A stretch of DNA of 64,000 nt from Planctomycetales bacterium. Its GTDB lineage: Bacteria; Planctomycetota; Phycisphaerae; SM23-33. The notes under the pieces were generated by a model. It did not search any database. It was not told the origin of the DNA and was given only the letters and a program-made list of their open reading frames with translations. Every line of letters starts with the position of its first letter. Within the stretch, counting starts at the first letter, position 1. Location: assembly GCA_030612725.1 (NCBI GenBank), contig JAUWNJ010000002.1, positions 64,542 through 128,541 on the forward strand, read 5' to 3'. Below are positions 9,720 to 62,963 of this stretch, one piece after another. Both the position numbers and the translations under genes were made by a program.

Positions 9720-9858
9720 ACCCTGGCGCGCAAGATGGTAAAAGAAAACCTATAAGCAGGCTGGGGCAAAGTCCCACCCTTCTCCTGATTTTGATATACC
9801 GCATGAGCAGAAAAAATTGGGACTTCGTCTAAAGCCTGCAATTAGGGAGGTAACATAA

Positions 9859-11784
9859 ATGTATATGCGGCGCGGACTGTTGTGTGCATTTTCGGTTGCG
9901 GTTTTCATCGGCCCGACGGGGGGCCAGACGTCCGCCGTGCCAGGGACGACCAGACCCGCCAAACCGGTCGATAAGAAATTCGACGACTCCTGGCTTGGCG
10001 AAATCGCATTGGAACAGTTGAAACAGGTCGTCGAGGCCCAGCCTGAATCTCTGGGAACCGGCGAAAAGTACCTCGAATTGTCCAAGTCTATGGAAAAGGC
10101 GATGCTCGCCCGCCTGACATGCGGACACGCCGACAAACTCAAAGCCCTCAACGACATGGTCTTCGTGATGCGGGCGTGCAGGCACCTGCCGCTGACTTAC
10201 GAAATCACCGGCGACGGTAAATTCGCAAAGTGGCTGATAGAGCATCGAGCGGTTTCGCGCCGGCTGTTCCGGGCAGTCGAGGAAATCAGACTCCCCGAAG
10301 ATGCGCTGAAAAAACTCCATGAACTGGTCAAAGCCGAGGAAAAGAAGGTCATCGAATATCCGGACCTTGCCGTCGCTTTCGCCACCTCGATTCCGATGAA
10401 GCACTATCGCGATCAGCCCGAAGCGTCCTCGATGCTGGATTCCTTCCGATGGTACACAGACCCCAAAGCCAAATTCTTCCGTTACGACCTGAAGAAAATG
10501 CCGTACGAGGTTTCGCGTTATCTCGCCACCAGCCGACTCAGTACCAAGGAGCGTAAATGGGCGGTTGCGAAGTACCGCAAATCGAGAAAGCCCGCCAAGA
10601 GTTACTTTGATTTGAAATATGATTATGACCATTACCGCAAGGGCGTCCCGAAGAAAATCGCCAAAGTCGCATACACCTTGCCCAATCTCCGTAAAGTCGG
10701 CGGGGGCTGTATTGAACAGGCCTACTATGCCGGTGAGGTTTGCAGGGCGTTGGGCATCCCGGCGACAATTGTGCTTGGACGGGGCGGAAGCGGCGAGACG
10801 CACGCATGGGTCGCCTGTCTGAAACTTACTCGCGGAGGTTCCGAGGCTGCATGGGACAGCCGGACGGGTCGGCATGAATCGCAACTTTATTACATCGGTA
10901 TTTTACGGGAACCTGCCGGCGGAAAGGAAATCCTCGATTGCGAACTTGCCCTTCTTTGTGCGGCTACGCATCTTCCGTTGCGACGACGCGAACAGGCCGA
11001 TACCGCGACTGAACTGGCGAAAATCGTCGAAAAAGCCATGGGTAAAATCGCTCAAGGCGACTTGTCCGTGTTAAAAAATCTCGCCCAACAGTACAATCAG
11101 GAACTCGCCAAAAATAATCGCCAGGCCCGAACCGGCTGGATAAAGGCCCAAAGAAAAATCGACATGTCGCTGGTCGAATACCTTATCGACACAGCCATTG
11201 CTCGCAACCTGGCCCATGGTCCGGTTTGGGAACTCATCATCGAACTGGCCAAAGCGGATCGCCTTCCGATTGATCATCTCTATCGTTTTTTTGATATTCT
11301 TGTCGTTCGCACCGCCAAGCAGTATCCGGATTACAGTTGTCGTCTGATTATGCGTATTGTCCCGACCATTAATGACCCTGAACGACGGAAGAAAGCGTAT
11401 AAAAACGCGGTTGGCATTTACTCGAAGCGTCCGGATTTGCAGGGATGGATTCTTATCGCGCTCGGCGAAGATTATCAGAAGCAGGGTAAGAATAGAAAGG
11501 CGGTTAAGGCTTATGAACAGGCGGCTTCGCGGTGCTCGAATCTCACCGAGATCGTTCTGGAGGCATCAGGACGGGCAGAGGCAATGTTCATCGAGAGAAA
11601 AAGAAGGAACCTGGCGATAAAGATGTATAGCCGGCTTTTCGCCAAGGCAAAAAAGGCGAAAAACGTACACTCAAGTTTCCGCCAACAGACAGCGCATTAC
11701 CTTCTCGGCAAGAGGCTGATTCAATTACTGATAGATGAAGAAAAAATGTCGGCGGCCAAACGTATCGAGGCGCAGATCAGGTGA
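9859..11784 (+). CDS. secreted transglutaminase-like cysteine protease domain protein with C-terminal TPR-like region
   Basis: Signal peptide, then GGGCIEQAYYAGEVCRALGIPATIVLGRGGSGETHAWVACL (Cys...His-A-W, the transglutaminase-like core). AGGGAGG RBS. Confidence 0.65.
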   Translation: MYMRRGLLCAFSVAVFIGPTGGQTSAVPGTTRPAKPVDKKFDDSWLGEIALEQLKQVVEAQPESLGTGEKYLELSKSMEKAMLARLTCGHADKLKALNDMVFVMRACRHLPLTYEITGDGKFAKWLIEHRAVSRRLFRAVEEIRLPEDALKKLHELVKAEEKKVIEYPDLAVAFATSIPMKHYRDQPEASSMLDSFRWYTDPKAKFFRYDLKKMPYEVSRYLATSRLSTKERKWAVAKYRKSRKPAKSYFDLKYDYDHYRKGVPKKIAKVAYTLPNLRKVGGGCIEQAYYAGEVCRALGIPATIVLGRGGSGETHAWVACLKLTRGGSEAAWDSRTGRHESQLYYIGILREPAGGKEILDCELALLCAATHLPLRRREQADTATELAKIVEKAMGKIAQGDLSVLKNLAQQYNQELAKNNRQARTGWIKAQRKIDMSLVEYLIDTAIARNLAHGPVWELIIELAKADRLPIDHLYRFFDILVVRTAKQYPDYSCRLIMRIVPTINDPERRKKAYKNAVGIYSKRPDLQGWILIALGEDYQKQGKNRKAVKAYEQAASRCSNLTEIVLEASGRAEAMFIERKRRNLAIKMYSRLFAKAKKAKNVHSSFRQQTAHYLLGKRLIQLLIDEEKMSAAKRIEAQIR

Positions 11785-18573: not shown

Positions 18574-18648
18574 ATTGCGGATTGTGGATTGTGGATTGCG
18601 GATTGCACACACTCGCTGATTTGTTGGAATCCGCAATCCACAATCCGA
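18574..18648. repeat. inverted repeat built of GGATTGTGGATT units (terminator-like hairpin)
   Basis: Left arm tgcggattgtggattgtggattgcggattgc, right arm gaatccgcaatccacaatccg, about 20-nt loop. Starts 3 nt after the stop of the 17909 gene. Confidence 0.75.
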
Positions 18649-19184: not shown

Positions 19185-20954
19185 ATGTTTTTGGACGAAG
19201 TGAACATTATGGTAATCGCCGGTAACGGCGGGGATGGGTGCGTAAGTTTCCGGCGAGAGAAATTCATCCCCCACGGCGGCCCGGACGGGGGAGACGGGGG
19301 AAACGGCGGGAGCGTTTATTGCCTGGCTGACCCTACCGTCAACACACTCTACCACATTGCCGGCAAACACCACTGGAAAGCCACTCACGGCGGCAGGGGA
19401 ATGGGTAAAAAATGCCATGGCCGCAACGGTGTTGATGTTGTCGTTCGCGTCCCGCCCGGAACGATTATCCACGATGCCGAGCACGGCATAGTGCTCAAAG
19501 ACCTCGCCGAAGAGGGCCAAAAGGTTTGCGTCGCACAAGGCGGCCACGGCGGCAAGGGCAACGTCCATTTCGCCACTTCAACCCATCAGACCCCGCGCGA
19601 AGCCATACCGGGTAAGTCAGGACAGACCCGCCGGCTTCACATGGAACTCAAACTCGTCGCCGACGTAGGGCTTGCAGGACTTCCGAACGCCGGTAAAAGC
19701 ACGCTCCTGCGACGACTGTCCGCCGCCAGACCCAAAGTGGCTGATTATCCGTTCACTACGCTTGAGCCGGTTCTCGGAATCGTGGAACTATCAGGGCATC
19801 GACGGTTCGTCATGGTTGATATTCCGGGGCTTATTGAAGGCGCGCATCGTGGCGTGGGGCTGGGCGAGGAGTTTCTCAGGCATGTCCAGCGGGCTTCGAT
19901 TCTCGTCCATATCGTCGATATCTGCCCGCAGACCGGCGATGCCGTCGAAAATTACCACACGATCAATGACGAACTGCGACAGTATTCGTCGGAATTGGCC
20001 GAAAAACCGCAGATCGTCGTCGCAAACAAAATGGACCTGACCGACAGCGACGAAAACCTCGCCCGATTCACCCAAGCCGTCGAATGCGATGTCATCGCCA
20101 TATCAGCAGTTACCGGAAAAGGGCTCGATAAACTGACCGAACGGATATGGAAAGTGCTGAAGGACAGGGACTTGGGACTAGGGATTAGGGAAAAGAAGAA
20201 ACATATGAACAAGACCGAATCCATTCTTGCTTGTGATGTCGGAAATTCTCGGATTGCGGTGGGATGCGTGGTCGATGAGGAAGTTTCGCACGTCCGGCAA
20301 GTTTCCCCCGACAATCTCGGCGATGCGCTGGCGGATTTATGGTCCGAGTGTCCCAAGCCGGCGATAATCGCAGCCTGTTCGGTCCAGGCTGAATATCTGG
20401 CGGAACTTGAAAAGGCGTCCAAACATATCGACCAGAAGGTTCTCGTGGTTGGGCGCGACCTTCCGCTGCCGATAGAGACGAATCTGTCCGAACCGGAAAG
20501 TATCGGAACCGACCGTCTTTGCGCAGCGGCGATGGCGTATCACCGCCTCGGCAGTGCCTGCGTCGTAGCCGATTTCGGTACAGCCATTACCATCGACTGC
20601 GTTAATGACGAGGGCGTCTTCCTCGGCGGAGCGATCCTGCCGGGGCTTGGTCTGTCCGCCGAGGCGTTGGCTAACGGTACGTCGGCCCTGCCTGCTGTGG
20701 AGTTGACCAAACCTGATTGGGTTTTCGGAGCCGACACACGCCAGGCAATTATCGGCGGGATAGTTACCGGCGCACGTGGCGCGATGAGGGAACTTGTCGA
20801 ATCCTACGCAACAGAATTAGGCGCTTGGCCCGAAGTAATCCTCACCGGCGGCGACGCCGAGATTGTCGGAGCAGGCTGCGACATAGTCAACGCCATCATC
20901 CCGGACTTGACGCTGTTGGGGGTTGCGCTATCGGCCCGGAATGTTCAGAAATGA
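19185..20954 (+). CDS. obg: GTPase Obg fused in frame to a type III pantothenate kinase (CoaX) domain
   Basis: Residues 1-320: Obg glycine-rich N-domain and G domain (GLPNAGKST, DIPGLIEGA, NKMD). Linker KDRDLGLGIREKKKH, then MNKTESILACDVGNSRIAVG..., a CoaX/Bvg-accessory fold, to the stop at 20954. No stop codon between the two parts. Confidence 0.8.
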   Translation: MFLDEVNIMVIAGNGGDGCVSFRREKFIPHGGPDGGDGGNGGSVYCLADPTVNTLYHIAGKHHWKATHGGRGMGKKCHGRNGVDVVVRVPPGTIIHDAEHGIVLKDLAEEGQKVCVAQGGHGGKGNVHFATSTHQTPREAIPGKSGQTRRLHMELKLVADVGLAGLPNAGKSTLLRRLSAARPKVADYPFTTLEPVLGIVELSGHRRFVMVDIPGLIEGAHRGVGLGEEFLRHVQRASILVHIVDICPQTGDAVENYHTINDELRQYSSELAEKPQIVVANKMDLTDSDENLARFTQAVECDVIAISAVTGKGLDKLTERIWKVLKDRDLGLGIREKKKHMNKTESILACDVGNSRIAVGCVVDEEVSHVRQVSPDNLGDALADLWSECPKPAIIAACSVQAEYLAELEKASKHIDQKVLVVGRDLPLPIETNLSEPESIGTDRLCAAAMAYHRLGSACVVADFGTAITIDCVNDEGVFLGGAILPGLGLSAEALANGTSALPAVELTKPDWVFGADTRQAIIGGIVTGARGAMRELVESYATELGAWPEVILTGGDAEIVGAGCDIVNAIIPDLTLLGVALSARNVQK

Positions 20955-28877: not shown

Positions 28878-29152
28878 AAATCCAAAATACGAATATCGAA
28901 ATACGAAACAAATTCGAATGACCGAATTCTCAAAATCCGAAACGAACTTGGACAACCAAAATCCAAAACGAAAGCACTATGACCTTGAAGATCGAACCTT
29001 TGAGAAAACGAGCGTGTCGCTTTGGTTCAGGAAAGCACTGAACTGATGAACATTTTCGGTTCCATCCTTCGCAAGAGCGAATGATATTTTGAACATTTGA
29101 ATTTCGTATTTCGAATTTGTTTCGTATTTCGGATTTCGATATTCGGATTTAT
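28876..29152. repeat. MITE-like palindromic element, AATCCGAAA/ATACGAAA family, copy 1 (rpe|accD)
   Basis: Left arm aatccaaaatacgaatatcgaaatacgaaacaaattcgaatgaccgaattctcaaaatccgaaacg and right arm ...ttgaatttcgtatttcgaatttgtttcgtatttcggatttcgatattcggattt are imperfect reverse complements. About 150 bp core. No ORF. Confidence 0.8.
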
Positions 29153-34101: not shown

Positions 34102-34800
34102 TTAGAATTCGCACTCGAGGGCTGTTTTTTCCAGCCTGGCGAGTGTTTCGTTAACATCGGCGACTTCCAGCAGTCTTAACACCCGTTCGGGTCCGATGGG
34201 TCCGTCCGGTGGTTCAGGCGCAAGCGTGAAGGATAGTTTTCCGTCGTTCCCGCCTGACGACGATATGCCGATGCCGCCTATTTGTCCCTTGATGTCTATA
34301 AGTTTGTTTGGTTTATCATCGCCGGGGTTGCGACGGCGGGCGACTTCCCACTTTGCGGTCTGTTTCAGCGCCTCCAGACGGGCCTCTATTTGCTTCCGTT
34401 CGCAATCGGTCAATGATAATTCGTACGTTACCGCCTTGATTTTCGCCTTGGTCTTGTTCGGTAGCGGTTCGGTTTTTATCAGTTTCATTCCTTCGGGAAA
34501 CTGCTCGCCGAGGTGCAGACCCGGGTCTGACGCAGGTGAATCGGTTTTCAACTCGATTACCATCAATTCGCATCGGCTGCTTACGCCCACCGGGCGGGGC
34601 AGCGGCAGGGACAGTTTGGGACGGGGATTGAATCCTTCGGAGAATTTTATCGGTAGTCCGGCCCGAGCGGCTGAACGTTCGCACAGGCTCATCATGTTGC
34701 GGTGCGAGAGGAACCGCAAATCCCCCCCGACGGTGAACCACACCGCCCATTGCATTTTTGATTTTCGATTTTCGATTTTCGATTTTACCAGGGCGGACAT
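34102..34800 (-). CDS. DUF2344 (TIGR03936, radical-SAM-linked) family protein
   Basis: FTVGGDLRFLSHRNMMSLCERSAARAGLPIKFSEGFNPRPKLSL is the DUF2344 signature. The start may instead be the internal MQWAV at 34755; the first 15 codons run through a gattttc x4 tandem repeat. Confidence 0.65.
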   Translation of the reverse strand: MSALVKSKIENRKSKMQWAVWFTVGGDLRFLSHRNMMSLCERSAARAGLPIKFSEGFNPRPKLSLPLPRPVGVSSRCELMVIELKTDSPASDPGLHLGEQFPEGMKLIKTEPLPNKTKAKIKAVTYELSLTDCERKQIEARLEALKQTAKWEVARRRNPGDDKPNKLIDIKGQIGGIGISSSGGNDGKLSFTLAPEPPDGPIGPERVLRLLEVADVNETLARLEKTALECEF

Positions 34801-34851
34801 ACGGTATTCCGTTTTTTCAGTCCCTAATCCCTAGCCCCAAGTCCCTGTCTT

Positions 34852-36588
34852 TTAGTACGCTTCCGGCATCACTTCACGAATCTGGTTGCGCAGATAGGAG
34901 ACTATTTGTTTGTCTATATTTAATGTCGCCACATGCCGGGCGACCCGGCGGGCGTGTTCGATTGTTATTGAACGAATGACCTTCTTCAGTTCCGGTACAC
35001 TCGGCGGGGCCACCGAAAAAGTTCGCAGACCCATTCCCAGCAACAGAAGGATGTATTTCGGGTCGCTTCCCATCTCCCCGCAGAGCGAAACTCCTACATC
35101 ATATCGCTGTCCGGCGCGGATGACTTCCTTTATCAATCGCAGCACAGCCGGGTTGGCGGCAGTGAACAGCGGCGCGACCCGCTCATTGGTTCTATCGACC
35201 GCCAACGTGTACTGGATCAGGTCGTTGGTCCCGATTGAGAAGAAATCCACTTCCTGCGCGAACTGGTTGCACTGAAGCGCCGCCGAGGGGACTTCCATCA
35301 TCATCCCTACGGGCACGTCTGTGCGGACCTCGACGCCTTCTTCCTCCAGGTCTTCCATCACATCTCGCAGAATCATCTTTGCCTGGCGGAGTTCCATCAC
35401 CGTGGTAATCAGCGGGAACATGACTGATACCTCGCCTTTCATCGACGCCCGCAGAATTGCCCGCAACTGCGTCTTGAATAATTGCAGGTGCTGGAAGCAG
35501 AAGCGAATGCTTCGCAAGCCCAGGAACGGGTTTCGCTCCTGTATGAGCAAATGCGCCTGCGTGTACTTATCAGCGCCCAGATCGAGCGTGCGTATGCACA
35601 CGGGACGACCATCCATAGCCTCGATTACTTTGCAATACGCCTCGTAATGGTCCTCTTCGGTCGGTTCGGTTTCCTTTTCGAGGTAGAGAAATTCGGTTCG
35701 GTACAGCCCGACGCCCTGCCCGCCCCTGGCAAGGACATTCTCCGCTTCACTCGGAAATTCGATATTTCCCAGAAGCGTTATTTCATGCCCGTCCATCGTA
35801 ATGGCGGGTAAATCCCGCAGGCGATCCAGTTCGCGGGTGAATTCGACCTGGCGACGCAGGAATTGGCGATTTTCCTCTATGGTGGCTTCGTCAGGTTCGA
35901 TGATGACAAGGCCACGGTTACCGTCGATGATTACTATGTCTCCGGCGTTGACGGAAACGCTCACATCATTAAGCCCGACAACGGCGGGGATACCCAGAGC
36001 ACGGGCGACAATGGCGGTATGACTGGTCCGACCGCCGGCGTCGATTGCCAGACCCAGGATATGTTTGCGGTCCATGCTGGCCGTCTGGGAGGGCGTAAGG
36101 TCGTGGGCGAGCACGACTACGTCTTCGGTCAGGTGCCCAAGACCTTCCCTGCTTTCGCCGATTAATCGGCGGAGGATACGCTTCTCGACGTCATAGACGT
36201 CCTTGACTCTCTCTGCGAGATACTCCGGCATCTGGAGGAATTCCTTGGCGTACTCGCGCAGGACGGTGGCGACGGCGAATTCAGCCGTTACGCTTTCGGT
36301 TTTGATTTTGTCCCTGACTTTTTCCAGCAGGGCTTCATCGCCCAGCAGCGCAAGGTGGAAGTCGAAGATTGCTCCCGTTTCCTTTCCAAGCCGCTTGGCG
36401 GTGTTGTCGCGCAGTTCGGTCAGTTCTTCGCGTGCCCCAGTCAGGGCGTATTCGAGGCGTTCAGCCTCTTCGCCGGCGCGGTCGGCGCTTATATGCCGCT
36501 CGGGAATGCGATATTCCTCGGCATCCAGGACAACAGCCTGGCAGATCACCACGCCGGGTGAAACTCCGATGCCTTTCTTGATTTCCAT
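34852..36588 (-). CDS. ptsI: phosphoenolpyruvate-protein phosphotransferase (PTS enzyme I)
   Basis: Active-site His region GGRTSHTAIVARALGIPAVVG and a PEP-utilizing C-domain. Confidence 0.9.
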   Translation of the reverse strand: MEIKKGIGVSPGVVICQAVVLDAEEYRIPERHISADRAGEEAERLEYALTGAREELTELRDNTAKRLGKETGAIFDFHLALLGDEALLEKVRDKIKTESVTAEFAVATVLREYAKEFLQMPEYLAERVKDVYDVEKRILRRLIGESREGLGHLTEDVVVLAHDLTPSQTASMDRKHILGLAIDAGGRTSHTAIVARALGIPAVVGLNDVSVSVNAGDIVIIDGNRGLVIIEPDEATIEENRQFLRRQVEFTRELDRLRDLPAITMDGHEITLLGNIEFPSEAENVLARGGQGVGLYRTEFLYLEKETEPTEEDHYEAYCKVIEAMDGRPVCIRTLDLGADKYTQAHLLIQERNPFLGLRSIRFCFQHLQLFKTQLRAILRASMKGEVSVMFPLITTVMELRQAKMILRDVMEDLEEEGVEVRTDVPVGMMMEVPSAALQCNQFAQEVDFFSIGTNDLIQYTLAVDRTNERVAPLFTAANPAVLRLIKEVIRAGQRYDVGVSLCGEMGSDPKYILLLLGMGLRTFSVAPPSVPELKKVIRSITIEHARRVARHVATLNIDKQIVSYLRNQIREVMPEAY

Positions 36589-36598
36589 AATTAATTAG

Positions 36599-36682
36599 CG
36601 GTCAGCAATCAGCGTTCAGCAGTCAGCAATTAAGTGTGTTACTTTTTCTTTTACTGACCGCTGATTGCTGACTGCTGATTGC
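36599..36682. repeat. inverted repeat built of CAGCAATCAG units between ptsH and ptsI
   Basis: Left arm gcggtcagcaatcagcgttcagcagtcagcaat, right arm actgaccgctgattgctgactgctgattgc. The same unit family recurs at 60586-60709. Confidence 0.75.
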
Positions 36683-36690
36683 TCTTCTTC

Positions 36691-42239: not shown

Positions 42240-42319
42240 GTAATTCGTAATTGGTAATTCGTAATTCGTAAAAAAACCGATGCTCTGTTACCAATTACGA
42301 ATTACCAATTACGAATTAC
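42240..42319. repeat. 27-bp near-perfect inverted repeat of TAATTCGTAATTGG units between ribH and nusB
   Basis: Left arm gtaattcgtaattggtaattcgtaattcgta, loop aaaaaaaccgatgctctg, right arm ttaccaattacgaattaccaattacgaattac. Confidence 0.8.
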
Positions 42320-42763: not shown

Positions 42764-42932
42764 TAAAATCCGAATATCGAAATCCGAAATCCGAAACAAT
42801 ATCGAAATACGAATGGCCAAAATTAGAAACACCATTTTCAAGTTGTCGTATAGTTTGAAACATTTGAAAATTCGGATTTTGAATTTGTTTCGGATTTCGG
42901 ATTTCGGATTTCAATATTCGGATTTAAGTACC
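42764..42932. repeat. MITE-like palindromic element, AATCCGAAA/ATACGAAA family, copy 2 (nusB|ftsY)
   Basis: Left arm aaaatccgaatatcgaaatccgaaatccgaaacaatatcgaaatacgaatggccaaaat, right arm aaaattcggattttgaatttgtttcggatttcggatttcggatttcaatattcggattt. Starts immediately after the nusB stop. Confidence 0.8.
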
Positions 42933-43886: not shown

Positions 43887-43914
43887 AGGAAGGGTGTAGG
43901 GCGTAGGGCGTAGG

Positions 43915-53387: not shown

Positions 53388-53531
53388 CTGTGTTCGCGTT
53401 TGCGCGCGCAAACGCGAACGTAAAAATCGGAGGAAATGAAAATTCCAAAAAAACTTTTCCCAAGGCCACCAAGGACTTATGGCGTCGCTATCCGTTTTGT
53501 GTTCGCGTTTGCGCGCGCAAACGCGAACGCA
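53388..53531. promoter_or_regulatory. two copies of a 33-bp direct repeat, each containing a perfect 28-bp palindrome, upstream of the PEP-CTERM protease gene
   Basis: gttcgcgtttgcgcgcgcaaacgcgaac at 53392-53419 and 53501-53528, 109 bp apart. They lie 136 and 245 nt upstream of the protease start. Confidence 0.6.
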
Positions 53532-53711
53532 AAAGTTAATACGGAGAGAATAGGGACTAGGGACTTGGGACTAGGGACTTGGAAAAAAGAAACAGATGGG
53601 CCGTTTAGGCAAGATGGGCAAAATAGGCAATGGCGGATTTTTTAAAATGGGCGTAAAAATGACACTAAAATACGCAAATCTATGCACGCCAAGGAGTTAT
53701 GGGTTTTGCAA

Positions 53712-53820
53712 TTTTTCCCAATTGTTCCGAATCGTTCCCAATCGTTCCGAATCGTTCCCAATCGTTCCCAATCGTTCCCAATTGTTCCGAATTGTTCCGT
53801 TTCGTTCCGTTTCGTTCCAC
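53712..53820. repeat. tandem array of about 11 copies of the 10-mer ATCGTTCCCA (variants ATTGTTCCGA, TTCGTTCCGT)
   Basis: Unit boundaries were read directly from the sequence. No spacers, so this is not CRISPR-like. Confidence 0.85.
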
Positions 53821-53892
53821 AACGGCGTGGCCCGATTCCGGTATCCGCCTGTGTGCGGCTCGAAAGAAGCGAGGGCCAGCCTGTCGCCAAAG

Positions 53893-54354: not shown

Positions 54355-54432
54355 AACGAGAGATACTATAACCTCAAAAGGTCTGAAAGCAAAGACAGCA
54401 AGAGATTTTTCTTTCAGCGGGTGATGGTTTTT

Positions 54433-56284: not shown

Positions 56285-56325
56285 TACTGCAACACAACTT
56301 TGTTTTTATGGAACAACAGGGATAT

Positions 56326-56456
56326 GCGAAATACGAATATCGAAATCCGAATGTTCAAAACATCTACGGTAAGACCTGCCGGACGGTGTTTTGGAGATTC
56401 AAATTTGGGTCATTTGATATTGTTTTGAATTTCGAGATTCGGATTTCGGATTTAAA
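56326..56456. repeat. MITE-like palindromic element, AATCCGAAA/ATACGAAA family, copy 3 (mreC|mreD)
   Basis: Left arm gcgaaatacgaatatcgaaatccgaatgttcaaaacat, right arm atattgttttgaatttcgagattcggatttcggattt. Confidence 0.75.
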
Positions 56457-59018: not shown

Positions 59019-59036
59019 ATGAAATCATTACGCAAA

Positions 59037-59200
59037 ATTCGAATATCGAAATCCGAAATTCGAAACAATATCGAAATACAAATGACCAAAATCCGAAACA
59101 TAAATACACAAACATTTTCAATGTTCTGTGTTTGGGACATTAGAAAATTCGGATTTTGAATTTGTTTCGTATTTCGAGATTCGTATTTCGGATTTAAAAA
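59037..59200. repeat. MITE-like palindromic element, AATCCGAAA/ATACGAAA family, copy 4 (mrdA|rodA)
   Basis: Left arm aaattcgaatatcgaaatccgaaattcgaaacaatatcgaaatacaaatgaccaaaatccgaaac, right arm aaaattcggattttgaatttgtttcgtatttcgagattcgtatttcggattt. Internal hairpin aacatt-ttc-aatgtt. Confidence 0.8.
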
Positions 59201-60580: not shown

Positions 60581-60585
60581 AAAAA

Positions 60586-60709
60586 GCGATCAGCGATCAG
60601 CAGTCAGCAAAAGATGAAAAAGACCGCTGTGCGTCACGTAGTGATGCTACGCATAGCACCGCGTAGCGATACTACGTACCACTACGTGGAACGCTGATTG
60701 CTGATTGCT
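60586..60709. repeat. nested hairpin element (outer CAGCAATCAG-unit stem, inner cacgtagtg/cactacgtg and gctacgc/gcgtagc stems) between convergent rodA and the downstream gene
   Basis: Left arm agcgatcagcgatcagcagtcagcaaaag, right arm gaacgctgattgctgattgct. Inner palindromes were read directly from the sequence. Confidence 0.75.
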
Positions 60710-62088: not shown

Positions 62089-62700
62089 AAAGAAGAAGAA
62101 AAGGAATAGCAGGATTACAGGGATTACCGGATTACAGGGATTTTTATTTTTGCTGAAAAAAGAAGAGGAAAAAGAAAGGCAGGGGGATTGCAGGGATTGG
62201 TTTTAATTCTCAAATCTTCTTACTTGCAAAGAAGACGAGCCGAAATTTATCAGCAGCGCAACCAGCAACCTGGAGGCTTTTAAGTAACTGATAGTCTGTG
62301 CTCGGTGCTCCTTAATCGTATCGACAACGGCCTTCAGTTCGACAATAACCTTTCCTTCAACAACCATGTCAGGCCTGTATGTACCACAAAGCATTCCCTC
62401 GTAAAAAACTTCGAATTCACGCTGTGACTCAAATGAAATTCCTGTGAGCATCAATTCCTTGGAAAGCGCTTTGTGATATGTCGATTCGGTGAAACCGGCG
62501 CCAAGCGTTCCGTGAACTTCATGAGCGGCCCCGATAATGTTATAAGTAAGTGCGTTAATGGGATCGTCAGCGTCCAAACCACCCCGAACACCAACAACAC
62601 CCCCGACTTCTTTTTCTGTTTCTTTTGTTCCTTTTAACAAAATAAAAATCCCTGTAATCCGGTAATCCCTGTAATCCTGCTATTCCTTTTCTTCTTCTTT
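62089..62700. mobile_element. cassette: GxxExxY gene bounded by a perfect 62-bp inverted repeat, abutting the 3' end of tRNA-Ser
   Basis: IR-L at 62089-62150 is exactly the reverse complement of IR-R at 62639-62700 (aaagaagaagaaaaggaatagcaggattacagggattaccggattacagggatttttatttt). Extra GGGATTG/CAGGGATTGG motifs at 62071-62086 and 62180-62199. Confidence 0.7.
62203..62640 (-). CDS. GxxExxY family protein (PD-(D/E)XK-like)
   Basis: YNIIGAAHEVHGTLGAGFTESTYHKAL (the GxxExxY motif), then ...VELKAV...LINFG. TTG start immediately adjacent to IR-R. Confidence 0.85.
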   Translation of the reverse strand: MLKGTKETEKEVGGVVGVRGGLDADDPINALTYNIIGAAHEVHGTLGAGFTESTYHKALSKELMLTGISFESQREFEVFYEGMLCGTYRPDMVVEGKVIVELKAVVDTIKEHRAQTISYLKASRLLVALLINFGSSSLQVRRFEN

Positions 62701-62707
62701 TCTTTAA

Positions 62708-62792
<85 letters not shown>

Positions 62793-62963
62793 ATAGGCTC
62801 CGATTTTACCAAAGCCTTTTCCGTGTTGCACGCGTTGATTTGACGCTTGTGGGGATATTCAACTTGTCGGCCTTGCTGTGCCGATGTAAGATTATACCGT
62901 AAAGTCGGAAAATGCGTAACTTTACGTCGTGTACGGCGTTTAAATTAAAGAACGAACCGGCAG

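Follow-up and report, generated by a model that had tools for sequence, protein, structure and literature searches.

Heptanucleotide repeat arrays behind stop codons in a 64-kb segment of a Phycisphaerae genome

Three dispersed G-rich sequences are tandem arrays of one heptanucleotide

The stretch of DNA analysed here, referred to as the window, is a 64-kb segment of a metagenome-assembled Planctomycetales genome (GenBank assembly GCA_030612725.1, contig JAUWNJ010000002.1, positions 64,542–128,541), of which 86% is coding. On its minus strand, ptsI is followed by a DUF2344/TIGR03936 gene located upstream of RNase E/G, and the gap between the two genes spans 51 nt (34801–34851), from the ptsI stop codon TAA at 34852–34854 to the DUF2344 start codon ATG at 34800. 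Within this gap we identified a short G-rich array. The original prediction regarded it as one of three near-identical copies of a 30-bp element, one of them coding, and as exactly filling the gap. The array instead begins 2 nt past the ptsI TAA and stops 20 nt short of the DUF2344 ATG.

The three sites exist, at coordinates shifted by 1–2 nt from those first proposed, and they exceed chance expectation by a wide margin (Table 1). The 29-mer shared by copies 1 and 2 has two matches in the window when up to one mismatch is allowed, versus 0.00 expected from 100 shuffles, and the 14-mer GGGAYTWGGGRYTW, also with up to one mismatch, has 10 matches versus 0.38 expected. Copies 1 and 2 are identical at 28 of 29 positions. 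Tandem Repeats Finder (TRF) returned a period of 7 at all three sites, and the actual object is accordingly not a 30-bp unit but a tandem array of 4 × 7 nt. The units observed were GGGACTT, GGGACTA, GGGATTA and GGGGCTA, and each copy contains four GGG tracts with 4-nt loops, which reads as a canonical G-quadruplex motif. The GACA leader of copies 1 and 2 looks like a decayed fifth unit, (G/A)GAC-A. Copy 3 is located in a spacer of 636 nt that is rich in repeats and separates two minus-strand genes, one encoding an ACT-domain protein and the other a trypsin-like protease; its G-rich strand is antisense to both neighbours and the site is far from both. A fourth G-rich array, with a different unit, occupies the entire 28-nt spacer between ftsY and a deacetylase gene. 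The window carries 3 (+1) G-rich arrays in 64 kb versus 0 expected.

The three sequences are, with little room for doubt, independent local arrays of the heptanucleotide simple-sequence repeat GGGAYTW, which belongs to the GGGANTN/GGGGA(C/T)T class. An over-represented and dispersed repeat family was correctly recognised, rather than a G-rich 30-mer no more frequent than chance, and two of the three copies adjoin a stop codon, a point that had been put forward as a check. The closest homologues of the Obg, DUF2344 and ACT proteins carry the source names Phycisphaerae or Planctomycetota, and the window sequence recurs in Logan assemblies of SRR12623518.

Table 1. Positions of the repeat arrays and of associated features in the window.
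Feature	Position	Strand	Remarks
Array copy 1	20163-20191	+	GACAGGGACTTGGGACTAGGGATTAGGGA; (GACA), units GGGACTT, GGGACTA, GGGATTA, then GGGA; four GGG tracts; G strand is sense for obg/coaX
Array copy 2	34821-34849	-	(GACA), units GGGACTT, GGGGCTA, GGGATTA, then GGGA; 29-mer of copy 1 with one mismatch (GGGGCTA); G strand is sense
Array copy 3	53551-53582	+	TAGGGACTAGGGACTTGGGACTAGGGACTTGG; (TAGGGAC/TTGGGAC)x4.5 by TRF
Fourth G-rich array	43887-43914	+	Unit AGGGYGT; three GGG and two GG tracts; G strand is sense
Open frame obg + coaX	19185-20954	+	Pfam GTP1_OBG and Pan_kinase; obg to ~20162, coaX with own ATG at 20205
A-rich spacer + coaX ATG	20192-20207	+	AAAGAAGAAACAT; kept after the array in L121 and L122
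Inverted array pair (GTAATTC / GAATTAC)	42240-42319	+	0 nt after ribH stop; 31-pair hairpin with 27-bp main stem; -42.4 kcal/mol, z = -8.0
Inverted array pair	36593-36683	-	Fills HPr-ptsI spacer; long hairpin; -46.1 kcal/mol, z = -9.0
Other inverted pairs of heptamer arrays	18574-18646; 60585-60709; 42766-42925; 59035-59195; 28885-29150; 56322-56453		
Array (AAAATCG)x4.7	34754-34786	-	Unrelated to the G-rich unit; inside DUF2344 N-terminal coding region, peptide MSALVKSKIENRKSK
dnaA	15991-17406	-	
Non-coding region next to dnaA	17407-17900		450 nt; arrays CAATTGG / CAATCGA
AATCCAC/AATCCGC repeats	18628-18646		
Palindrome TGTGTTCGCGTTTGCGCGCGCAAACGCGAACG	53389-53425; 53498-53534		Perfect; two copies, 97% identical, 109 nt apart
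10-mer array TTCCSAATCG	53709-53838		Eleven tandem copies
LysE-ACT spacer	54355-54432		78 nt, no array
9-mer arrays GGATTACAG x3.6 and reverse complement	62112-62142; 62647-62677		Inverted pair ~500 bp apart
PD-(D/E)XK_3 (PF13366) gene	62203-62640	-	
tRNA-Ser	62707-62793	-	

The open frame through obg and coaX lost an in-frame stop codon

Copy 1 does lie within a single open reading frame (ORF) with Obg and CoaX domains, as was originally stated, and the linker RDLGLGIREKKKH of this ORF is the array and the A-rich spacer read in frame 0. An identical obg-coaX ORF was found in an independent assembly of SRR12623518. Every GGGAYTA unit carries a TAG; because 7 = 1 mod 3, three such units close all three frames, and one TAG-less unit variant opens one frame. 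In the relative designated L121 (Obg 97% identical), the array consists of GGGATTA, GGGACTT, GGGATTA and a terminal GGGA (junction AAAGACAGGGATTAGGGACTTGGGATTAGGGAAAAGAAGAAACATATG) and the TAG of unit 1 terminates Obg after ...KDRD. The array of L122 (Obg 84% identical) has five tracts, and there the TAG of unit 3 terminates Obg after ...GLGTRD. Unit 1 in the window is GGGACTT: the TAGs of copy 1, at 20179 and 20186, fall in frames +1 and +2 only, and frame 0 is open through the array and the 13-nt A-rich spacer to the coaX ATG. Because obg of the relatives stops at an array TAG and frame 0 has no stop here, the "coding" copy is a by-product, namely an intercistronic array that lost its in-frame TAG. 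The array of copy 1 has the same length as that of L121, so a substitution or a reshuffling of units, and not a length error, accounts for the difference.

We considered whether the array acts as a phase-variable switch, in which the gain or loss of 7-nt units, or a change of unit variant, would determine whether Obg and CoaX are made separately or as one fused protein. The array is positioned exactly on the obg stop, which is found in unit 1, in unit 3 or, in the window, in none, and fused Obg-CoaX ORFs also occur in two distant lineages, P0012 and P0075. However, the window and L121 have equal numbers of units and differ by substitutions, species differ at site 1 by substitutions or a single unit, and the best 120 Obg homologues include 116 stand-alone proteins of 327–363 aa, two of 377 aa and only two fusions. 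In addition, housekeeping genes are atypical contingency loci, and coaX retains its own ATG and a conserved leader. Such a switch is unlikely in the extreme. The Obg-CoaX linker peptide of P0075 (ERNSFRS...ERNEFRS) resembles a translated repeat, similar in kind to the TTCCSAATCG 10-mer array found elsewhere in the window.

Arrays persist at orthologous junctions while their units turn over

The array between ptsI and DUF2344 is also present in two relatives, as GACAGGGACTAGGGACTAGGGACTTGGGACCAGG in L247 (DUF2344 89% identical) and as GATAGGGACTAGGGACTAGGGATTAGGGATTAGGGACTA in L248 (69%). Both start TAA-AA-GA(C/T)AGGGACTA, which places them 2 nt past the ptsI TAA as in the window. Identity at fourfold degenerate sites between these genomes is 0.58–0.62. 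The array of the ftsY spacer has an orthologue in L254. Four or five tracts were counted in L121, L122, L247, L248, L253 and L254; in the intact orthologues the GGG tracts are kept, with at least four in each, and the loop positions vary. Because relatives also carry arrays at the obg-coaX and ptsI-DUF2344 junctions, with units that differ in order and number, copies 1 and 2 were not recently inserted. They are resident repeats that turn over, not transposed copies.

[quoted passage not shown] The near-identity of the two 29-mers is compatible with movement. So is a 41-nt piece comprising array and flanks (40 of 41 positions identical), which is found in the ACT-protease spacer in the window and in the LysE-ACT spacer in L253. 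Arrays of one genome are also more alike than orthologues, with a loop identity of 0.83 within genomes versus 0.67 between them, over 7 pairs only. Similarly, L247 and L254, which derive from the same sampling series but were not shown to be one genome, share the ends AAAGACAGGG...GGGACCAGGTAAAA at different junctions.

Against mobility, the sites have no palindrome, terminal inverted repeat or target duplication, and no transposase or REP-associated tyrosine transposase (RAYT) is encoded nearby. In relatives, sites 1 and 2 are filled by arrays of another unit order and number. Rfam gave no match at the array sites at the gathering score, its sole hit in the window being tRNA-Ser at 62708–62792, and a transfer RNA scan found nothing at these sites. 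A chance match of two three-unit arrays to within 1 nt would have a probability of ~1/10 by a rough hand estimate from unit frequencies in the clade, so that, taken by itself, the resemblance between the two 29-mers is weak evidence. A MITE or other small transposable element would bring terminal inverted repeats and target site duplications, which we did not find, and the relocated 41-mer of L253 is the sole hint of movement. We conclude that a mobile element or insertion footprint is very unlikely.

Several other repeats were observed at or near these junctions. The obg-coaX spacer of L249 (2960–3140) contains two direct copies of a 50-nt unit, each with a hairpin CCGGGAC...GTCCCGG, and thus a different structured repeat at the same junction. 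Just upstream of copy 3 lie two copies of the palindrome TGTGTTCGCGTTTGCGCGCGCAAACGCGAACG, which are hairpin-forming and REP-like with no T run behind them. The 10-mer array directly downstream of the ACT-domain gene is kept in L253. The LysE-ACT spacer of L253 measures 183 nt (9818–10000) and contains an 8-mer array (GGTTGACY x5) and the C-rich heptamer array. Compared with the array-free spacer of the window, ~105 nt of repeat modules were gained or lost between genomes whose ACT proteins are 96% identical. A small ORF following copy 3 (ATG 53596, with a coaX-like leader) was rejected as a gene, as its frame is not kept in L253 and as the 299-aa ORF, which runs antisense across part of the ACT gene, has no Pfam match.

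Heptamer arrays of about ten families follow stop codons throughout the window

The heptanucleotide period is not confined to G-rich sequences. The window contains 15 period-7 tracts, versus 0–3 at every other period that is not a multiple of seven and 0 in shuffles. A looser TRF pass identified 27 heptamer arrays of 4–9 units in about ten unit families, including ATTGCGG, CAATTGG, GATTTTC, TTGGTAA, AAATCCG, AGCGATC and AGGGCGT. Although 86% of the window is coding, 24 of the 27 arrays are intergenic, and together the heptamer arrays account for 9.8% of its intergenic bases. They usually begin 0–7 nt past the stop codon, even in spacers of 100–285 nt. Sites 1 and 2 and the ftsY array adjoin or overlap the stop codon upstream of them, and the G-rich arrays in general mostly separate genes of like orientation, their G-rich strand being the messenger RNA (mRNA) sense. 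An array was found within 7 nt of 11 of 54 gene 3′ ends, compared with 2 of 52 gene 5′ ends. Heptamer arrays were also seen in the relatives L122, L248 and L250–L252. Most unit families share a GATT/AATC core (GGGATTA, GATTTTC, GATTGCG, AATCCAC, AATCAGC, AAATCCG and GACAATC), which is also present in the Xanthomonas unit GGGAATC and the Nostoc unit GGGGATT.

Strand bias had been proposed as a check on the original prediction. With regard to transcription, sites 1 and 2 and the ftsY array have their G-rich strand in sense orientation, and site 3 has it in antisense. With regard to replication no bias is evident: the probable origin has all arrays to one side of it, yet either DNA strand can be the G-rich one. 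This origin probably lies in the dnaA region, where dnaA is followed by a non-coding region with heptamer arrays and the cumulative GC skew reaches its minimum at ~14–16 kb. The AATCCAC/AATCCGC repeats of the window resemble DnaA-box cores.

Inverted pairs of arrays are frequent. The four pairs that we folded form hairpins of 27–31 bp (z = −8 to −9) that start 0–7 nt after stop codons. These hairpins have no U tail and are therefore not canonical terminators. L248 retains a hairpin in its HPr-ptsI spacer but forms it from a different repeat, a 9-mer, indicating that here the structure is conserved and not the sequence.

One unrelated heptamer array lies inside the N-terminal coding region of DUF2344. 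Its peptide MSALVKSKIENRKSK is kept in L248 and in L251/L252, with third-position changes (CTG/CTT and GTA/GTG; compared in the window, L248 and L251), and is absent from L247. We considered ATG 34755 as an alternative start, the Pfam match beginning at residue 20, and rejected it on account of this conserved N-terminal peptide with its third-position changes; on this comparison, ATG 34800 stands as the start of DUF2344.

Elsewhere in the window, an inverted pair of 9-mer arrays encloses a PD-(D/E)XK_3 gene beside tRNA-Ser. This gene is also present in the relative L253, and the 9-mer-flanked unit could be a selfish or mobile cassette.

G-rich arrays in other phyla are associated with the upstream stop codon

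The unanchored 24-mer pattern GGGRYTWGGGRYTWGGGRYTWGGG matched more than 119 loci in genome contigs. The phyla among the matches listed included Acidobacteriota, Chloroflexota, Planctomycetota, Cyanobacteria, Bacteroidota, Gemmatimonadota and Proteobacteria. In metagenomes, the GACA-anchored 29-mer was present in more than 120 contigs from bogs, soils and guts. We considered GACA as the defined end of a lineage-specific element and rejected it, as the anchored 29-mer is widespread and only 5 of 131 unanchored arrays start with GACA.

These 131 distinct arrays, taken from the matches listed in the genome scan, were used to determine array position relative to ORF ends; ORFs were open frames of at least 80 codons, not validated genes, and random positions in the same loci served as the control. 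An ORF on the G-rich strand ends at the array in 50% of cases versus 17% in the control; for the C-rich strand the corresponding values are 27% and 17%. Where an ORF end is found on one strand only, the ratio is 49:19 in favour of the G-rich strand (p = 0.0004). In many cases the array itself supplies the stop, as a TAG at offset 5, 12 or 19.

In the Ga0082212 metagenome, all but one of the arrays listed use the ATTA unit throughout. Several of its contigs (L126, L134, L220, L221 and others) contain a multi-copy arrangement of GACAGGGATTA x4–6, then an (AAAGACA)n array, then the gene start ATGAACTTACAGTTC. This composite resembles a gene family, either paralogous or mobile, with two heptamer arrays in front of it.

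Comparison with characterised repeats and with protein-binding arrays

Knowledge of heptanucleotide repeats goes back to 1990 for cyanobacteria and to 2015 for Xanthomonas. The short tandemly repeated repetitive (STRR) sequences of Calothrix PCC 7601 comprise several heptamer families that are tandemly repeated and dispersed in intergenic DNA, as are the 27 arrays and about ten families of the window. The STRR1 unit, CCCCAGT, is the complement of GGGGACT and differs by one base from the window unit. However, the host of the window is not cyanobacterial, the units are not those of STRR1–3, and the window arrays are short.

The REP sequences of enterobacteria and the bacterial interspersed mosaic elements (BIMEs) built from them are imperfect palindromes of 20–40 bp with a GTAG/CGTC head that are mobilised by RAYT transposases. 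Work by Liang, Rudd and Deutscher in 2015 reportedly found that terminating ribosomes stall at REPs if these lie within ~15 nt of the stop codon. The window arrays are analogous to these elements in position and possibly in action, both being structured repeats just past stop codons in operons. The suggestion that the element is a small REP-like unit thus applies to its intergenic location directly after stop codons and not to its architecture: the arrays are direct tandem repeats without self-complementarity in the single array, and only paired arrays form hairpins.

The closest match is provided by the repeats that Rehm et al (2015; PMC4692102) described, (GGGANTN)n in Xanthomonas and GGGGA(C/T)T in Nostoc PCC 7120. 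In these repeats positions 1–4 and 6 are conserved and the mode is four units; 68–93% are intergenic, mainly between aligned ORFs, at a mean of 28 nt from the 5′ neighbour, with some overlapping stop codons. Each Xanthomonas genome contains 70–75 inverted pairs, and sister species occupy the same junctions with variable sequence. The arrays of the window share the GGGA-N-T-N unit arranged head to tail, the typical four units, the non-coding location between co-oriented ORFs near or overlapping the upstream stop, and the inverted pairs, and in related species the same junctions are occupied with variable length and sequence. They differ in their host, which belongs to Planctomycetota/Phycisphaerae, in their ACTT, ACTA and ATTA variants in place of AATC, and in representing one of about ten heptamer families, most of which are not G-rich. 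Rehm et al recorded K+-dependent circular dichroism (CD) spectra of a G-quadruplex for (GGGAATC)3GGG, with a T1/2 of 50 C. The geometry of G3 tracts and 4-nt loops is the same in the window arrays, for which quadruplex formation is a ViennaRNA prediction. The window arrays belong to a heptameric G-rich repeat class that is already described and widespread. As far as our literature search shows, the class is new for this phylum, as no paper on heptamer arrays in Planctomycetota was found.

TAACTGA heptamer repeats have been described in marine Beggiatoaceae, some Cyanobacteria and Bacteroidetes, where they are located a few nucleotides upstream of start codons, and ribosomal protein S1, Csp or CsrA proteins were proposed to bind them (MacGregor, 2015; PMC4679880). 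Like the window arrays, these are tandem heptamers (2–6 copies) near coding boundaries that occasionally occur in-frame in ORFs, and a post-transcriptional role was proposed for them. They differ in that the window arrays are tied to the upstream stop codon and in that TAACTGA is not G-rich.

The same proposal can be extended to the window, where the arrays would be tandem binding sites in a 7-nt register for an RNA-binding protein, either CsrA, whose core ARGGA is matched by the A(G)GGA(U/C) of each unit, or a protein with a cold-shock or S1 domain, for which every heptamer would be one site. Several copies of the protein would be recruited beside the downstream start codon and control translation from it. 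Each array has four GGA motifs, GGGA is conserved and the rest of the loop is variable, the distance from array end to start codon is 13 nt for coaX and 20 nt for DUF2344, and the GATT/AATC core is common to most unit families. Conversely, hairpin loops are not where the GGA motifs lie, about ten unrelated unit families at equivalent positions are more than one protein can explain, and the cross-phylum arrays track the upstream stop, not the downstream start. No csrA gene was found by tblastn in the 64-kb window, to which this search was confined. A protein-binding array has a low probability. A Shine-Dalgarno role was rejected on our own reading of the sequence, as AGGGA mismatches the complement of the anti-Shine-Dalgarno sequence and as 13–20 nt separate it from the ATG.

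Origin and possible role of the arrays

As a whole, the observations are best explained by resident GGGAYTW arrays that are generated by slippage, persist after stop codons and may have a role as quadruplexes; we assign this reading a probability of roughly 0.55. Slipped-strand mispairing would lead to gain, loss and reshuffling of units, and the arrays of one genome would share unit variants through a genome-specific bias or short-patch conversion. This sharing would explain why two arrays in the window are identical at 28 of 29 positions. We infer an origin by slippage together with homogenisation within genomes.

A role for the structure is more tentative, and we consider it possible, though less likely than not, that the array acts as an RNA quadruplex at the intercistronic boundary. 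ViennaRNA with quadruplexes allowed placed a quadruplex in the minimum-energy fold in six of seven G-strand contexts. The transcribed array r(GGGACUUGGGACUAGGGAUUAGGGA), with its four GGG tracts and 4-nt loops, would fold into a three-tetrad RNA G-quadruplex and would be the single-array counterpart of the 27–31-bp hairpins formed by paired arrays. Such a compact structure would be located right behind the stop codon, where a terminating ribosome would have to unwind it. Its effect could be to protect the upstream part of the mRNA or have it processed, or to determine how tightly the downstream cistron is coupled to the upstream one.

The main rival to this explanation is a selectively neutral simple-sequence repeat, made and renewed by slippage and surviving where it is harmless, with deletion bias pressing the arrays against the stop codon. 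Quadruplex potential and the fused ORF would then be incidental. This alternative is a credible one, although it falls short of the explanation given above. It accords with the turnover of the arrays, with the many unrelated unit families of the same size and position, and with flanking genes that are functionally unrelated; Rehm et al (2015; PMC4692102) found no functional association for their repeats.

The following points weigh against a role as quadruplexes. L251 and L252, which are as near to the window in ptsI as L248, hold a decayed array GACAGCAACTGGGGACCAGGAACTGGGGA without four GGG tracts; the obg-coaX array is absent from L249 (Obg 80%) and from L250 (71%), where nothing was found at this place; and the spot of copy 3 holds other repeats in L253 (ACT 96%) and L254 (85%). 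The C-rich strand of copy 3 is in the sense of its neighbouring genes. Non-G-rich arrays in the same genome share both size (~30 nt) and placement, so neither feature needs a quadruplex, and a repeat that renews itself could come to lie at stop codons through the loss of the neutral spacer DNA surrounding it. Quadruplex folding is itself predicted, and no function or link to gene function was identified for the repeats of Xanthomonas and Nostoc (Rehm et al, 2015; PMC4692102).

Other observations are harder to reconcile with neutrality. The same junctions are kept across genomes at 58–62% fourfold-site identity with the GGG tracts intact and at least four tracts per intact orthologue, and placement is tight (0–7 nt) even in the 100–285-nt spacers. 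The G-rich strand is preferred as sense by 49:19 across phyla; harmlessness alone does not predict this asymmetry, because both strands carry stops in all three frames.

More broadly, selection might have made the heptamer arrays a "post-stop-codon module" of general occurrence, in Phycisphaerae as in many other phyla, acting as a quadruplex where a single G-rich array is present and as a long hairpin where arrays form an inverted pair. We consider this rather improbable. If true, conversion between arrays would keep the modules of one genome similar, and the module would be a functional equivalent of REP elements made from simple repeats, placed so that terminating ribosomes have to unwind it. 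It could tune termination, the stability of mRNA 3′ ends and coupling to the next cistron. Its signature would be the cross-phylum bias for the G-rich strand as sense at ORF ends, together with the fact that arrays at orthologous junctions retain four or more GGG tracts.

Implications

The phenomenon of dispersed heptamer arrays, including its many unit families and hairpin-forming pairs, is now extended to Phycisphaerae. In related species the G-rich arrays hold the same junctions while their units reshuffle, and in the multi-phylum sample it is the upstream stop codon to which the arrays are tied, their G-rich strand being the sense strand. The arrays can also create or remove stop codons and thereby fuse neighbouring genes, as for obg and coaX, which matters for annotation. 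These results do not overturn current knowledge of the repeats, and they provide concrete, conserved cases in which the question of their function can be tested.

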